From a bacterium (lineage in GTDB: Bacteria > Patescibacteriota > Minisyncoccia > Minisyncoccales > JAGGXC01): a stretch of 63,212 nucleotides of DNA. The notes under the pieces are model-generated. The model saw nothing but the letters and a program-made list of their open reading frames with translations, did not search any database and was not told the origin of the DNA. Below are positions 2,623 through 33,724 of this stretch, in pieces. The stretch's first letter is position 1, and the number at the start of each line of letters is the position of its first letter. The stretch spans positions 1 through 63,212 of the forward strand of contig JAGGXC010000022.1 of NCBI GenBank assembly GCA_021163265.1. Direction: 5' to 3'. The position numbers were made by a program, and so were the translations under genes.

Positions 2623-3750
2623 ATGAAAATAGTTTTTACAGGAGGAGGAACAGGCGGTCATATTTATCCAATTATTGCTGTTTCTCGCGAAGTAAAAAGG
2701 ATTTGTTCTGAGGAAGGAATAAATATAAAATTCATTTATATTGGCCCGAAAGACGAATTAACTTCGCGTTTATTATCTCAAGAAGGAATTAAAATAAAAC
2801 CTATAATAGCAGGTAAAATTAGACGTTATGGAGGAATTGTACCAATAATTCAAAATATTATAGATATATTCAAAATAATTATAGGAATAATTCAAGCCTT
2901 TAATTATATGTTTTTTTTAGCGCCTGATCTTATTTTTAGCAAAGGAGGTTACGGCGCTTTTCCCGTTATTCTATCAGCTAAAATTCTAAAAATTCCTGTA
3001 ATTCTCCATGAATCCGACGCTATATCCGGAATAGCAAATAAACTAGCTTCGAAATTTGCTGTAGAGGTATTTGTCTCTTTTCCAGAAACAGAAAATATTG
3101 ATGTTTCTAAAATGATTTTGGTGGGAAATCCTATCAGGAAAGAAATCCTTAGAGGATCAAAAGAAGATGCAAAAGAACTATTCGAGATTACTACTGCTAA
3201 ACCAGTTTTACTTATTATGGGCGGCTCCCAAGGCGCTCAAAAAATTAATGATCTTATACTTGACGCTTTACCTCAATTAGCGGGAGAGTTTGAAATTATT
3301 CATCAAACAGGCATCAAAAACTTCGAACAAGTAAAAGCAGAGGCAAATGTAATGCTGAAAAAAGACTTCAGAAGATATTATCATATTTATCCTTTCTTAA
3401 GAGAGATAGAGTTAAAACACGCTTACGCCATTGCCGATATCGTCGTAGCAAGAGCTGGATCAGGAACTATTTTTGAAATAGCAGCTCTAGGAAAACCATC
3501 TATCTTAATACCATTACCTCATTCTGCTCAAAGCCATCAATTAAAGAATGCATATGAATATGCAAAGACTAAAGCTGCTATAGTAATTGAACAAGGAAAT
3601 TTAACTCCAAGTTTCTTTATTGGTATCTTAAAAAATATTATTTCGAATCCCGAAAAAATCAAAAAAATGCAGGAGGCAGCAAAGGAATTCTCTAAACCAA
3701 GAGCAGCTGAGGTAATAGCTCATTATATCGTTGATTATTTTAAAGAATAA
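2623..3750 (+). CDS. murG: UDP-GlcNAc--lipid I N-acetylglucosamine transferase
   Basis: N-terminal GGGTGGHIYP; C-terminal ARAGSGTIFE...P motif typical of MurG. Confidence 0.93.
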   Translation: MKIVFTGGGTGGHIYPIIAVSREVKRICSEEGINIKFIYIGPKDELTSRLLSQEGIKIKPIIAGKIRRYGGIVPIIQNIIDIFKIIIGIIQAFNYMFFLAPDLIFSKGGYGAFPVILSAKILKIPVILHESDAISGIANKLASKFAVEVFVSFPETENIDVSKMILVGNPIRKEILRGSKEDAKELFEITTAKPVLLIMGGSQGAQKINDLILDALPQLAGEFEIIHQTGIKNFEQVKAEANVMLKKDFRRYYHIYPFLREIELKHAYAIADIVVARAGSGTIFEIAALGKPSILIPLPHSAQSHQLKNAYEYAKTKAAIVIEQGNLTPSFFIGILKNIISNPEKIKKMQEAAKEFSKPRAAEVIAHYIVDYFKE

Positions 3751-5385: not shown

Positions 5386-5910
5386 ATGCAAAAAGAATAC
5401 AAAATTTTTAAAAACTTTATAGTAGGTTTGATAATTATTTCTTTTTTTCTGCCTTGCCTTTCTTTTGCTACTACCACAATAAAACAGCCCGAAAATATCC
5501 AAGAAGCTCAAAGTTTCTTCAGTAAAGCTATCCAGAAACTTACCAAAGAACTGCCATCTGCGATAAAAAAATTATTCCAAGAACAGATAATACCAATTTG
5601 GACAAAAATGTGGAACTGGACAAAAAATCTATGGGAAAACCGCCTAAGACCCTTTCTTTACAATTTATGGTATTCAAACCTCAAGGCAAAGATAAAAGGT
5701 TTTATTGAAAATACAAGAAATTTCTTCCAAGAAAAATTCCATTCAAAAATCAAACCAAAAGAGCAAGAAATTCAGCAAGAGTTTATAAAAGAAAAAAAGG
5801 AAATGGAGGAAGATGTGTCAAGAATTACTCATCCACTAAGAGACAGGATTAATAATTTTTTTGGAAATATAAAAAGCATACTTTCCAAAGCTCTAAAAAT
5901 TATTAAATAG
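5386..5910 (+). CDS. Hypothetical secreted or membrane-anchored protein
   Basis: N-terminal hydrophobic signal-like segment (LIIISFFLPCLSFATT). No recognisable family. Confidence 0.6.
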   Translation: MQKEYKIFKNFIVGLIIISFFLPCLSFATTTIKQPENIQEAQSFFSKAIQKLTKELPSAIKKLFQEQIIPIWTKMWNWTKNLWENRLRPFLYNLWYSNLKAKIKGFIENTRNFFQEKFHSKIKPKEQEIQQEFIKEKKEMEEDVSRITHPLRDRINNFFGNIKSILSKALKIIK

Positions 5911-7043: not shown

Positions 7044-7394
7044 ATGCTAAAGGAAGATTTTAGCAAAAAAGATGTAAATGCATTTTTACCTAGAGAAGCA
7101 CCTAAAAAACGCCTGAAAGCTACGATAACAAGAGATATAATTACTTTAGAACCTGTCATACGCGTCAGCTTTTTAAATCCTGTCAGAGAACGGAATTTCT
7201 ATTTAAGAACAAAGAATATCACCGTTTGGGCACAGCGATTCTCAAATAGAGAACTAGGAGAAATCTATGCGGATTGCTTATTACAGATACATTCCATGCC
7301 TGATGATGATATTCCGCCTACATTTAAAAAAATAATGGAGGAACTGGAGAAAGTAGTCAAAAAACGACAGGTAAAACTTTCTATTCAAATATAA
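7044..7394 (+). CDS. Hypothetical protein
   Basis: 116-aa ORF preceded by AGAGGTGA; no recognisable family. Confidence 0.55.
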   Translation: MLKEDFSKKDVNAFLPREAPKKRLKATITRDIITLEPVIRVSFLNPVRERNFYLRTKNITVWAQRFSNRELGEIYADCLLQIHSMPDDDIPPTFKKIMEELEKVVKKRQVKLSIQI

Positions 7395-7416
7395 GGCATT
7401 TCAAGATGCCTTTTTT
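7395..7416 (+). terminator. Rho-independent terminator
   Basis: ggcat/atgcc stem (7395-7399 / 7406-7410) plus T6. Confidence 0.55.
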
Positions 7417-7431
7417 ATTGTGCGACATTTA
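7416..7431 (+). repeat. Repeat copy 1 (16-nt core TATTGTGCGACATTTA)
   Basis: Exact 16-nt match to copies at 7784-7799 and 10075-10090 (reverse complement). Followed by 16 nt, then TTGACA (7448-7453). Confidence 0.9.
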
Positions 7432-7481
7432 TACGTTCAACAAAATATTGACATTTTCTTTCTATATGATATTTTTTAAGT

Positions 7482-7733
7482 ATGATATCTCTGGAAGGAG
7501 AGAAGATAATAGTATGGATAGTCTGCCTAATAATAATCTATCTAGCAGGAACAGGAATAACCGCCTATATCACTAGAAAAAGTAAAGGCATTCTGAAAGC
7601 GTTTAGTTCTCGAAATTGGATAATCTTATGGCCGTTAACCTGGGGTTTCATTATTGTATGTCTGATAATAACACTTCTAATAGGAACCGTGGTGCTTTTA
7701 CTGGGAGGACTTTTAGGAAATGAAAATCTATAA
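7482..7733 (+). CDS. Small 2-TM membrane protein
   Basis: 83-aa ORF with two hydrophobic helices and the segment NWIILWPL. An internal GGAAGGAG followed by ATA codons makes the start uncertain. Confidence 0.55.
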   Translation: MISLEGEKIIVWIVCLIIIYLAGTGITAYITRKSKGILKAFSSRNWIILWPLTWGFIIVCLIITLLIGTVVLLLGGLLGNENL

Positions 7734-7749
7734 ATATATTTTTATATAT

Positions 7750-7779
7750 GAGGCTTCAATACAAACAGCCTCGTTTTTC
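7750..7779 (+). terminator. Rho-independent terminator
   Basis: gaggct/agcctc stem (7750-7755 / 7767-7772) plus T-run. Confidence 0.6.
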
Positions 7780-7780
7780 T

Positions 7781-7799
7781 TAATATTGTGCGACATTTA
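7781..7799 (+). repeat. Repeat copy 2 (TAATATTGTGCGACATTTA), left inverted repeat
   Basis: 19-nt perfect inverted repeat partner of 10075-10093. Confidence 0.9.
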
Positions 7800-7812
7800 A
7801 TAAGTTCGTATT

Positions 7813-8757
7813 TTATTCTTTCAATGGGTGATATTTACGATGTATTCTTTCTGCATAACGATCAGATGCATGAACATACCTTGTTGTTGTGTCTAGTGAT
7901 TCATGCCCGAGAAGAATTTGAATAGCTGCAGGATTTGCTCCGCTTTCCGCTAGATAAGTAGCAAATGCATGCCGAATTGAATGACAAGAGAGTGGAATAT
8001 TAAGACCAAGAAGTTCTCTGTATTTTTTTACTTTCTCCTGCAAATAGTTAGGAGAAATTTTTTTTGATTCTTGCCGAGCATTTTTACCTCGATAAGGAAC
8101 AAAAAGATAGGGAGATTTTGTCTCACCTCTAACTTCCAAATAGTTCTTAAGATGTTTTTGAGCGCGAGGTGTTAAATAAACGAACCTTTCCTTTTTTCCT
8201 TTACCTCTAATAAATATCCTTCCATGTTTATCAATTTGAGATCGTTTAAGATTTATTAATTCAGATATTCTCATTCCAGTAGAAAACAAGACTTCCAACA
8301 TTGCTCGGTTGCGCAATTGAATTACCTTGTTTTTTTCAAACTTAGAAGGAGATTCTATTAACTTTACTATCTCCTCAAAATCAGATACACGAGGGTGTTT
8401 TCTCGGATTCTTTACCAACTTAACTACTTCGGGAGCCACAGGAGGATTATAATCCATATCTATCAAAAACTTCAAATAAGATCTAAGACTTGAGAGGATT
8501 CTATTTATAGAATAACTGCTGAGTTTCTTGTGAGTTAATTGATTCTTCGCAGTTTTTCTATCATTAGAAGATAAATAAGCTTTGTAATTCAGTATGGTTT
8601 TTTTATCAATTTCATCAAATTCCACACCCATCTCATTTAAAAAATTCTCAAAAATCTTTAAATCTCTTTCATAATTGTAAACAGTTTCTCCAGAATAATT
8701 ATTGGTTTTAAGATTTAGTAAAAAATCATCAAAATAAGGAAGAAATATCTTCTTCAT
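7813..8757 (-). CDS. Tyrosine site-specific recombinase (XerC/XerD-like)
   Basis: N-terminal SAM-like domain. Catalytic set present: R (TGMRISEL), GKGKKER, HSIRH, LLGH, and terminal TRYVH tyrosine. Confidence 0.9.
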   Translation of the reverse strand: MKKIFLPYFDDFLLNLKTNNYSGETVYNYERDLKIFENFLNEMGVEFDEIDKKTILNYKAYLSSNDRKTAKNQLTHKKLSSYSINRILSSLRSYLKFLIDMDYNPPVAPEVVKLVKNPRKHPRVSDFEEIVKLIESPSKFEKNKVIQLRNRAMLEVLFSTGMRISELINLKRSQIDKHGRIFIRGKGKKERFVYLTPRAQKHLKNYLEVRGETKSPYLFVPYRGKNARQESKKISPNYLQEKVKKYRELLGLNIPLSCHSIRHAFATYLAESGANPAAIQILLGHESLDTTTRYVHASDRYAERIHRKYHPLKE

Positions 8758-9524
8758 AAAGGTTTTACTTTAATATCTTTTAATAAAAAGATATAGCTCT
8801 TTCGTAAAATCTCGGGAGTAACGGAAAAAGGAAGACCGATTTTCTCTCCACACTTTTTAACAATCCTTTGAATAGAACGGGGTGTCAACCGATTTTCTGT
8901 ACCTTTTCGAGAACGATAATGAATAAACATAGCTTTATTGTTGTCTTGGCGAGCCTTTAAATACCTTTCAACCCAAACTCGGCTCCTTTGAGAAAGTTTT
9001 CCAATATCTGTTCGATTTAGACCAACAAGTTTAGATATCTTAAATCCATTAAAAATTATAGTTTCCAAAATAGCTCTGTCTCTCAATCCTTTTTCTTGAT
9101 TGACATCAGGCACACGCAGAATCTTTCTGATTTGCTCAAGATTAAGGAAAATGATATTTTTTGATTCTTCCTCAGATGGCTTTAAAAGCTTTATTTTATC
9201 AGGAACGATACATAATATATCTCTGGCTAAAAAATAGCTGAGAAGGCCTCTCAGGGCGATTAAATAGTAATTCTGAGTAGTCTTTTTAAGAGGTTGACCT
9301 TTCTCATTTTTATATTTAGCTAAAAATTTTTTATAATTAGAGATATCTTTGGGGGAGAGCTGATAAGGCTTTAAATTTTCTTTTTTACTTTTCTTGAGCC
9401 ACAAAATAAATTTATTAAGATATCTCTTATAATTTTCTTGAGTATGAGACGAAAGACCTGTTTTTTTACAATAATCTATAAATTCAGAAACAAGGGTTAC
9501 AATAGATTTTTGAGTTTTTATCAT
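8754..9524 (-). CDS. Degenerate tyrosine-recombinase paralog lacking catalytic residues
   Basis: Aligns to its neighbour (ETIIFNGFKISKLVGL vs EVLFSTGMRISELINL), but box I Arg is Lys, the HxxR His is lost (PEILRK), and the protein ends before the LGH...Y region. ATGA overlap with 7813..8757. Confidence 0.75.
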   Translation of the reverse strand: MIKTQKSIVTLVSEFIDYCKKTGLSSHTQENYKRYLNKFILWLKKSKKENLKPYQLSPKDISNYKKFLAKYKNEKGQPLKKTTQNYYLIALRGLLSYFLARDILCIVPDKIKLLKPSEEESKNIIFLNLEQIRKILRVPDVNQEKGLRDRAILETIIFNGFKISKLVGLNRTDIGKLSQRSRVWVERYLKARQDNNKAMFIHYRSRKGTENRLTPRSIQRIVKKCGEKIGLPFSVTPEILRKSYIFLLKDIKVKPL

Positions 9525-9693
9525 ATTTTATCATAATTATTATGAGTGTAAGGGATATTATACTCAATTTCTATTATCAAGAATAGACTATTTAAAATGA
9601 GGTGTCAAGTGGAAAATTATTACTCCCCCAAAGTAGTAAAAGAAAAAAAGCGCCGAACATAAAAGACGCTTATTTATTATTTATATAAAAAAT

Positions 9694-9987
9694 TTACCAC
9701 CAGATCAGATCTTCTACTTCACTATGAGTAATCCCTGCAACTAAGATAACTATCAAAAAAAGAACAACAAACACAATAGTCCATATTATTACTGCAATTG
9801 GCCAGCAGATAATCAATTTCCATGAAATCAATCGTTCTTTGTTCTCTTCTTCACTCTCATCTTCTCCTAAATCTTTCTTAATATCTAGGTAGAATCTATC
9901 TACATGCTGGGCTAACAACGCAACGATAATTACCCCTATTAGATATACCAAAATACTTACTACCAACAAATTTAACCATTCTTGCAT
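9694..9987 (-). CDS. Small 2-TM membrane protein
   Basis: 97-aa ORF with GGGGAGGT Shine-Dalgarno, two hydrophobic helices, acidic loop, and the segment WKLIICWPI. Confidence 0.65.
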   Translation of the reverse strand: MQEWLNLLVVSILVYLIGVIIVALLAQHVDRFYLDIKKDLGEDESEEENKERLISWKLIICWPIAVIIWTIVFVVLFLIVILVAGITHSEVEDLIWW

Positions 9988-10074
9988 TTTTTTACCTCCC
10001 CTATTTAGATATGTTAATTTACCAAATAAAGAATTAACATACTATTTCAGATATGTCAATTCCCAAATTCATAA

Positions 10075-10093
10075 TAAATGTCGCACAATATTA
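10075..10093 (-). repeat. Repeat copy 3, right inverted repeat
   Basis: Reverse complement is TAATATTGTGCGACATTTA. Overlaps the TAA stop of the CAP-domain gene. On the minus strand it is followed by 15 nt, then TTGACA (10059-10054). Confidence 0.9.
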
Positions 10094-10978
10094 TCGCGGA
10101 TTAGTTATACAAGAATTGAAAGTAGCGACTTGAATATTATATTTAGAGATCATATCTTTGGTTTCATCAAACAACTCATTATACTGCTCTACCAAGCTAT
10201 TATACTCTTTAACTTTCTTTCGATAAAGGCTTCTATTTCTAAATTTAAGAGAAGCCATTTCTTTCTGAAGATTCTCTAATTCTGTCCTTAGCTGATCTAA
10301 CTCTCTCTTATTAGTATCTATTTTTATCTTTAATTGACTGTCAGGTTGAGGACAAGCAGATAAAGGTAAACCAAAATGCTGAACAGCAATCCATACCTCT
10401 TTTCCCTCAAACATTCCTTTTCCTACTGCTACTCCTATTTCTTGATAACGCGTGTTCAAAATATTCTTTCGATGATCTGGACTATTCATCCAAGCTTCTA
10501 CTAAATCTTGATCTCCGTCAAAATTACCGAGAGCAAGGTTCTCACCTACCACAATAAACTCGTAGCCGCTTTGCTCAACCAACTCCCCTACTCCAATACC
10601 AGAAGAAGAATAATGAGCGAAATATTGATTTTGAAACATATCCTGCAATTTCATTTCTGCAGAAGAATCAAGTAAAGGATTCTCTTTTAAAGGTGAAAGA
10701 CTATGATTTTTTCTCTCAATATTGGTCCATTCAATTACCCCTTCTTTCGTAAGATCCTTTCCAGCTGATGTGTCTTCTACACGAAGTGGTGGTGGAGCTT
10801 GAATTTCTATTTTAGGTTTCTTAATTACAAGTATTCCTGTTTCTTCTTTAATTTGGAGAGGAAAATCAAAAAATAAATTTACTATACCTTCTTGCTGCAA
10901 AAATAGAAAAATACTCAAAAAAAGAATTAGAAGCAAAAAAAACAATAAACCTTGTGATTTTCTTGGCGCATTGTCCAT
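10091..10978 (-). CDS. Secreted CAP/SCP (PR-1-like, YkwD-type) domain protein with C-terminal coiled coil
   Basis: N-terminal signal-anchor. CAP-domain motifs (GENLALG, AWMNSPDHRKNIL, YQEIGVAV). Confidence 0.75.
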   Translation of the reverse strand: MDNAPRKSQGLLFFLLLILFLSIFLFLQQEGIVNLFFDFPLQIKEETGILVIKKPKIEIQAPPPLRVEDTSAGKDLTKEGVIEWTNIERKNHSLSPLKENPLLDSSAEMKLQDMFQNQYFAHYSSSGIGVGELVEQSGYEFIVVGENLALGNFDGDQDLVEAWMNSPDHRKNILNTRYQEIGVAVGKGMFEGKEVWIAVQHFGLPLSACPQPDSQLKIKIDTNKRELDQLRTELENLQKEMASLKFRNRSLYRKKVKEYNSLVEQYNELFDETKDMISKYNIQVATFNSCITNPR

Positions 10979-19184: not shown

Positions 19185-19257
19185 TGCCTCCGGGAGGACT
19201 CGAACCTCCAACCATCGGCTTAAAAGGCCGCTACTCTACCAGTTGAGTTACGGAGGC
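19185..19257 (-). tRNA. tRNA-Lys (anticodon UUU)
   Basis: Manual cloverleaf: acceptor GCCTCCG/CGGAGGC, anticodon loop CTTTTAA, T-arm GGAGG-TTCGAGT-CCTCC. No encoded CCA. Confidence 0.88.
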
Positions 19258-33589: not shown

Positions 33590-33700
33590 TTTGATGTGAA
33601 AATTAAAAAAAACTGCTTTCCGCAGACAAATTAATTAAAAAGTAAATTTTTTTCCTCGGCAGGTCTTATCAAAAATGCCTGCTGTCTGCGGAAATCACTA
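33590..33700 (-). promoter_or_regulatory. Structured rplJ leader (L10-leader-like attenuator)
   Basis: 12-bp long-range helix tttccgcagaca (33617-33628) / tgtctgcggaaa (33683-33694) enclosing a gcagg/cctgc hairpin. On the minus strand the 3' arm is followed by T8. Confidence 0.5.
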
Positions 33701-33724
33701 GAATATTTTTATCTTACAAAACCA

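Follow-up and report, generated by a model that had tools for sequence, protein, structure and literature searches.

A probable chromosome-dimer-resolution module with a degenerate Xer paralog at the replication terminus of a Patescibacteria genome

Positions 7413-10093 of contig JAGGXC010000022.1 (assembly GCA_021163265.1), the 63,212-nucleotide stretch of Patescibacteria DNA analysed here in full (the window), carry two overlapping genes of the Xer family of tyrosine recombinases, xer A and xer B', set among three copies of a short motif. With a probability that we put at roughly 0.7, the region is explained as a chromosome-dimer-resolution (Xer/dif) module at the replication terminus. Under this explanation, the operon running from 9524 to 7813 would encode a non-catalytic protein, B', and an active recombinase, A. 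A would resolve chromosome dimers at a two-armed palindrome, site-3 (9543-9566), and B' would still bind the three motif copies, the half-sites S1-S3, and have a non-recombinational role there. The likeliest roles for B' would be an unloading of SMC at the terminus, similar to that at the XDS sites of Bacillus, or regulation or boundary formation.

The xer operon, its palindromic site and the terminus

The sequence-only reading that drew attention to this region had described 7813-8757 as an intact Xer-like recombinase gene, and this holds: its product has complete Phage_integrase and SAM domains, aligns with XerA and XerD and keeps every catalytic residue. The best NCBIfam scores of A were 210 bits for XerC, 196 for XerD and 183 for XerA (XerA cut-off 220). 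Both A and B' score best against the XerC, XerD and XerA models and stay under the equivalog cut-offs, so that A is a member of the Xer family and not a XerC, XerD or XerA equivalog. The best solved-structure matches of the two proteins are XerA and XerD, that of A being P. abyssi XerA. Homologues of A at 75-93% identity number in the hundreds and are widespread in Patescibacteria. Between the window (7813-8757) and one related locus (L121, 1634-2578; stretches retrieved for comparison are given L numbers), A is 91% identical, whilst GluRS and MurG are 75-76% identical. With a dN/dS of ∼0.04, an approximate figure since dS is near saturation, the constraint on A appears unusually strong for a recombinase.

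Site-3, TGAGTGTAA-GGGATA-TTATACTCA, lies 18 nt upstream of the B' start, that is, of the B'-A operon, and had been overlooked in the sequence-only reading. Two imperfect inverted arms around a centre of 6-11 bp are found here, with a 9-6-9 or 11-6-11 geometry, and not in the one-armed 19-bp motif. Site-3 is unique in the window, where 0.08 chance matches are expected. The palindrome TGAGTGTAA-GGGwTA-TTATACTCA lies upstream of A or of B'-A in 29/29 A-type loci. The exact 24-mer, with W at one position, has 91 occurrences in public genome contigs, one per stretch, against a chance expectation of ∼0.03, and an A-type gene adjoins it in all 77 of the newly fetched loci. This association points to site-3 as the cognate site of the A family. 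Site-3 also overlaps a TATAAT box within the operon promoter region, so that autoregulation is likely.

The paralog B' had been described as degenerate and translationally coupled to A, and we likewise found a SAM domain, a sub-threshold match to the catalytic domain and overlapping genes (Table 1). B' is 49% identical over residues 1-266 to a family of ∼318-aa recombinases, family B, introduced below. B' has Lys in place of Arg-I and Glu in place of the first His, and lacks both the Lys beta-hairpin and the C-terminal His/Tyr region; the losses are identical in the B' counterparts of L121 and L153. The protein is 72% identical to its L121 ortholog (GluRS 76%, MurG 75%), with a dN/dS of ∼0.2, again approximate. 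B' is thus predicted to be catalytically dead, yet is under purifying selection.

The location of the locus follows from two coinciding switches. Cumulative G-C along the window has its maximum at 4.3-8.2 kb and declines steadily beyond ∼9.5 kb, and gene direction changes from + to - between 7733 and 7813, at the position of S2. Together, the GC-skew switch and the gene-direction switch place the locus at the replication terminus, the region that harbours dif sites and, in certain lineages, the genes of the corresponding Xer proteins (PMC5357621, PMC1914069, PMC2958812). The related Patescibacteria loci, ∼45 of B type and ∼29 of A type, have the same location: to their left the skew is positive in 34/36 B-type and 21/27 A-type loci, and to their right it is negative in 30/32 and 26/29, respectively. 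An L10 leader (33597-33709) and five tRNA genes (at 19185, 29370, 42604, 43736 and 43816) are all on the minus strand of the window, as would be expected if the right-hand 50 kb form a single replichore.

Table 1. Features of the Xer region in the window
Feature	Position	Strand	Remarks
Half-site S1	7413-7431	+	exact 16-nt core 7416-7431; arm TTGTGCGACAT at 7418-7428
TM83	7482-7733	+	83-aa small membrane-protein open reading frame between S1 and S2
Half-site S2	7781-7799	+	left arm of perfect inverted pair
xer A	7813-8757	-	intact Xer-family tyrosine recombinase, 314 aa, full R-K-H-R-H-Y set
xer B'	8754-9524	-	256 aa; predicted catalytically dead B-type derivative; ATGA overlap with xer A
Site-3	9543-9566	.	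two-armed dif-like palindrome
Promoter-like site	9580-9608	-	TTGACA-17-TATTCT, upstream of site-3 and the B'-A operon; consensus match only
TM97	9694-9987	-	97-aa small membrane-protein open reading frame; TTGACA 15 nt inward of S3
Half-site S3	10075-10093	-	right arm of perfect inverted pair

Some further occurrences of the A module were seen. Site-3 lies within ∼60 nt of the start of the stretch in L100:38-61 and L256:2-25 (metagenome-assembled genome (MAG) AUK117, JAGGWD01); if these starts are contig ends, assemblies break at the dif-like site, which could reflect structural heterogeneity or an assembly accident. A-type genes of 60-72% identity are present in records labelled Chloroflexota/Dehalococcoidia (L192, L209, L212, L222, L244 and L176) and in many labelled 'uncultured Gammaproteobacteria', and these other-phylum records carry the exact 24-bp site-3 except for L176, which has a 1-mismatch copy. 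Either mis-binning or mislabelling, or a spread across phyla, would account for these. In L164:6986-7276, an A-type gene is followed by a fragment of the family B C-terminus (residues 215-311, 63% identity), the reverse of the B'-A order in the window.

The repeated motif and Xer family B

The inverted pair noted in the sequence-only reading is exact: TAATATTGTGCGACATTTA at S2 has its perfect reverse complement at S3, and the pair stretches to 22 nt at 95% identity. The 16-mer TATTGTGCGACATTTA is present three times, at 7416 (+), 7784 (+) and 10075 (-), a count equalled in 0/100 shuffles of the window. There is no further full copy in the 63 kb, the next best matches carrying 3 mismatches. The surroundings of the copies are also as had been reported. 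S1 follows a terminator-like hairpin (7393-7412) and is separated by 16 nt from a TTGACA at 7448. S2 runs into the 3' end of xer A, whose stop codon is 13 nt on. At S3, the TTGACA after 15 nt was recognised by reading the sequence and was not listed by a consensus promoter scan. That S3 contains the stop codon of a CAP-domain gene (10091-10978) had gone unremarked. When the three copies are aligned with their flanks, homology ends at the motif, so S1 and S2 did not arise by a simple segmental duplication. No Rfam RNA family was matched by the motif or the neighbouring hairpins, and a literature string search with the motif returned unrelated primer matches only.

An exact scan with the 16-mer over one genome per species (596 Gb) matched at least 119 stretches. 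Since roughly 280 chance matches are expected for a 16-mer in 596 Gb (a uniform-composition estimate), part of these matches is noise, such as those in tpiA coding sequence or in unrelated phyla. In L043, L068, L085, L095 and L108, the 16-mer lies within tpiA, encoding the peptide I-V-R-H-L, a coding coincidence that inflates the raw motif counts; tpiA adjoins the xer locus in several of these genomes. A different picture emerges from the 47 of the 119 listed loci that are Patescibacteria encoding the ∼318-aa family B recombinase (type L037:5164-6126), with proteins 58-81% identical to this reference (L037rec). Among the matches listed, and with duplicates removed, a half-site lies 6-830 nt past the B stop codon in 45/47 B loci, always oriented into the 3' end of the gene; each of the two remaining loci has less than 210 nt of downstream sequence. 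At least 10 genomes have a second, inverted half-site from a few hundred bases to ∼1.1 kb away on the 5' side of the B gene, and the inverted pair of the window is therefore a recurrent layout. The search of related genomes also disposes of the idea, which the sequence-only reading had offered as its own counter-case, of a dispersed REP-like sequence, as the motif in the ∼45 Patescibacteria loci is always next to a recombinase gene.

Column-wise information content gave the motif consensus wwATA-TTGTGCGACAT-TTA, with ∼20 conserved bases and both flanks unconserved. Scanning all registers for a second arm gave a signal in the 11-6-11 register only, at 24/159 sites, and most of these 24 are a separate two-armed site, site-2 (wTGTCGCTTwA-CCTACA-TTGTrCGACAT), which is located 24-135 nt upstream of B genes and points the same way as the 3' half-site. 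No two-armed version of this kind is present anywhere in the window. Judged by conservation, the motif is a one-armed half-site. It appears to belong to the specificity of B rather than to the dif-like site of A, with B' as a dead descendant of B. Half-sites are present in essentially all B loci, in ∼5-6/10 B'-A tandem loci and in 1/17 A-only loci.

The same arm was seen in two-armed sites elsewhere. Perfect 14-6-14 palindromes, TAAATGTCGCACAA-CAGTTA-TTGTGCGACATTTA, occur at L056:540-590, L056:∼1675-1705 and L111:160-215, in Paenibacillus periandrae and a related record. The adjoining tyrosine recombinase is only 27% identical to B, so that the same arm serves a distant recombinase outside Patescibacteria. 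The two-armed sequence ATGTCGCAAAA-GATATA-TTGTGCGACAT is present at L029:∼3290-3320, L046:∼5655-5685 and L053:∼7825-7855, with no related recombinase gene in the surrounding 8 kb and an ambiguous GC skew; these may be the dif sites of genomes with xer elsewhere. At L126:6399-6409 (+), there is a fourth arm copy, TTGTGCGACGT, right of the module and oriented against the copy nearby, so a rule that copies face each other is not strict. The facing pairs had suggested a fork-trap (Ter-like) function as the principal explanation, which was dropped on account of this 'wrong'-orientation copy and was also weakened by the arm being common to two-armed recombinase sites.

Loci with A only, with B only and with the B'-A tandem share a slot just downstream of murG-gltX (26 loci). 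With this common slot, A/site-3 and B/site-2 look like alternative single-recombinase modules, and the tandem B'-A would look like a hybrid form in which B has turned non-catalytic. A canonical XerC/XerD partnership of A and B was considered and rejected, as either family can fill the slot together with its own site and without the other nearby.

Several points weigh against a dimer-resolution module as we describe it. The positive skew on the left side of the window rests on ∼7 kb only, and as the window covers 63 kb of the genome, a further dif may lie elsewhere. A and B may also coexist as partners in some genomes. Binding of the half-sites by B' and recombination by A at 9543-9566 are what we infer from association only. 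Given its TATAAT box, site-3 may serve chiefly as an operator for autoregulation. In about half of the tandem B'-A loci, no half-site is recognisable within 6 kb, and B' may thus have a function independent of the half-sites.

Inversion, small genes and alternative explanations

The Xer genes are co-directional with murG-gltX in 23 syntenic loci (8 tandem, 11 A-only, 4 B-only) and have the opposite orientation only in the window, L121 and L149. The A proteins of L121 and L149 are both 91% identical to that of the window, and GluRS within this clade is 75-76% identical to that of the window. The 23 to 3 split indicates that the repeat-bounded module inverted once, in the ancestor of the small clade. 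However, the same map would result from an inversion spanning the repeats, and the comparison does not prove exchange within them. Inverted half-sites may on a rare occasion have recombined when B was still active, or the inversion may have been an ordinary rearrangement at the terminus. It had been suggested that the segment has inverted or can invert; the past inversion stands, but ongoing switching was not seen. The same order was found in the window, a JGI contig, the sister strain, L121 and L149, and no alternative arrangement was present among 11, 24 and 24 contigs of three species (L126, L129 and L139) obtained by exact-protein look-ups; all of these are assembled contigs, in which low-frequency flipping could escape notice. 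L126 and L139 have inverted arm pairs, and the distal copy in L129 has one mismatch. Many short contigs end near half-sites, and the repeats themselves could equally cause such breaks. In the sister strain (sample ERZ23486261), contigs L180 (926 bp) and L181 (1020 bp) have an 11-nt overlap right after S2; despite this assembly break, the order S1-TM-S2-A(-) is that of the window.

These observations bear on the proposal of the sequence-only reading that the Xer pair flips 7800-10074 through the 19-bp repeats as a programmed inverton, in the manner of phase variation or a shufflon. Perfect inverted repeats do bound the segment, its orientation is opposite to that in the 23 syntenic relatives, and inverted motif pairs flank a xer gene in the other genomes mentioned above. 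Yet the window, L121 and L149 share a fixed orientation despite the divergence of their GluRS, and two assemblies from this strain or a sister strain agree with it; neither coexisting orientations nor a change of expression or coding was found. The small membrane-protein gene TM97 within the segment is present with its promoter, as had been described, and both this promoter and that of the operon lie inside the segment; the CAP stop codon, within the repeat, stays intact on a flip. Since the promoters move with their own genes, flipping switches nothing. Moreover, the family member here to which the motif corresponds is without Arg-I, the Lys hairpin, His and Tyr, and the family of the active enzyme uses another site. 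A programmed inverton is for these reasons improbable, and the likening to shufflon, invertase or integron logic was given up, with a single orientation, no expression effect and a motif that goes with the dead paralog's family. Against an integron, the integron-integrase models gave 85-97 bits (cut-off 265), the motif has a fixed sequence rather than the structure of an attC, and each of the two small genes has a promoter-like site. The second of these, TM83, has its own promoter-like site (7448-7475) and is followed by a hairpin and T-run (∼7750-7780), and S1 and S2 form direct repeats around a self-contained 352-bp promoter-gene-terminator unit. This could be taken to mean that TM83 and TM97 are cassettes inserted and excisable at the motif by Xer, like IMEX or pdif modules. 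In keeping with that, the small genes beside half-sites differ from genome to genome, and the nearest relatives lack TM97 and have tandem half-sites with arms 15 bp apart (L121:2647-2680, L149:1813-1846) where the window has S1-TM83-S2. But an empty site should hold one copy, and L121 has the tandem pair. TM83 has one homologue among 5.8 × 10⁹ proteins, in the sister strain and at the same position, and TM97 has none in 180 related loci; there is therefore no sign of movement between contexts. The presumed crossover region flanking the motif also differs, being TTTTTA at S1 and TTAATA at S2 and S3, and the sites are one-armed with a cognate recombinase that is dead here. Small genes have clearly turned over at the terminus; that the sites moved them is not apparent, and we regard cassette capture as unlikely.

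It may instead be supposed that the motif itself is the dif, with B' binding the conserved arm and recruiting A to a degenerate second arm, and that 9543-9566 is an operator or promoter element. S2 is exactly where the two gene orientations converge, conservation of the motif is stricter than that of either two-armed site, site-3 contains the TATAAT box, and XerS and XerH provide examples of asymmetric dif sites in which one arm is weak (PMC5357621). On the other side, A-only genomes keep site-3 and are nearly free of the motif, so that A does not need it. The window copies, by reading, have 0-2/11 matches to the second arm in the second-arm register, and three active dif copies in both orientations would be hazardous. 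We give this scheme little credence. It is still somewhat harder to credit that B' serves as a guide on the conserved arm which recruits A to cleave, the half-sites being live recombination substrates; if true, B'-guided A at one-armed sites would provide rare inversion and small-cassette capture at the terminus, which would account for the flipped module and for the small genes, particular to each lineage, next to every half-site. Overlapping tandem recombinase genes between inverted repeats also recall a mobile element of the RIT/BIM type or a tyrosine-recombinase transposon, and the recombinases are more conserved than housekeeping proteins (A 91%, GluRS 76%, window against L121). However, the A-only, B-only and tandem forms keep the same murG-gltX terminus slot in all 26 loci, each stretch has a single copy, B' is catalytically dead and no target-site or multi-copy signature was seen, which makes a mobile element very improbable.

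Significance and relation to known systems

A large part of bacterial diversity belongs to the Patescibacteria, or Candidate Phyla Radiation (CPR), whose genomes are tiny. No description of an Xer/dif or dimer-resolution system of Patescibacteria was found in our literature searches, and the combination of an active Xer and an adjacent dif-like site with a co-transcribed dead paralog and one-armed sites is a previously undescribed Xer/dif variant. The data suggest that two gene-plus-site Xer modules, A/site-3 and B/site-2, alternate in one terminus slot, and that in hybrid genomes a B without catalysis is still kept, together with one-armed sites. If B' binds the half-sites, the recombinational and the non-recombinational functions of Xer proteins would here be naturally divided from each other, echoing XerD and XDS of Bacillus and the degenerate streptococcal 'XerD'. 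As practical markers of the terminus, the three conserved sites can also help to check the assembly and closure of CPR MAGs.

The half-sites may act like XDS sites, by analogy. The action of XDS reportedly requires neither the catalytic residue nor XerC nor dif. Passages in PMC11840125, PMC11894783 and PMC12322038, citing Karaboja et al. 2021, describe Bacillus subtilis XerD as unloading SMC at the dif-like XDS in ter. The half-sites have comparable features, as judged from their sequence: each is a dif-like site in the terminus region with one conserved Xer arm and apparently no functional second arm, there are 1-3 copies round the terminus module, and the presumed binder is non-catalytic yet conserved. 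The Bacillus sites, however, are spread over ter, whereas those here lie within ∼2.7 kb, and the Bacillus binder is the active XerD, whereas the presumed binder here is a dedicated dead paralog, for which an effect on SMC is suggested only by analogy.

In single-recombinase systems, a dif adjacent to the recombinase gene is found at the terminus, difSL lying immediately upstream of xerS (PMC5357621, PMC1914069). XerS/difSL and XerH/difH likewise have a Xer gene beside a two-armed terminus site, as with site-3 and the operon here. Streptococci also have a conserved, catalytically degenerate 'XerD'/YnbA that coexists with XerS/difSL (PMC1914069), a parallel to B'. A and B are nonetheless not XerS or XerH, the XerS model scoring 101-111 bits against a cut-off of 267, and the 9-6-9 or 11-6-11 site-3 differs from the 31-bp difSL. 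Unlike those modules, the one described here has its dead paralog co-transcribed with the active enzyme and is flanked by one-armed sites of a second specificity.

Archaeal XerA/dif offers a further likeness, in the best structural match of A and in an 11-6-11 architecture at the terminus. In Thermococcales, dif is flanked by inverted repeats proposed to be partner-binding sites, and in Sulfolobales it is close to xerA and is present twice in S. solfataricus (PMC2958812). The present lineage is bacterial, the XerA score falls under the equivalog cut-off, the site sequence is another one and there is an extra dead paralog. FimB/FimE-fimS, Rci-sfx and Mycoplasma Xer1/vpma resemble the region in that short inverted repeats bound a segment with, or beside, a recombinase gene, and the segment here has inverted at least once; but no promoter or coding swap and no orientation polymorphism was seen here, FimB/E-type models score 31-51 bits against cut-offs of 221-222, and the repeats have the specificity of the inactive paralog. 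The Acinetobacter pdif modules and IMEX share with it small gene units between Xer-type sites at or near dif, in mixed site orientation, and differ in that the sites here are one-armed and the bounded genes are without signs of mobility and without resistance or phage cargo.

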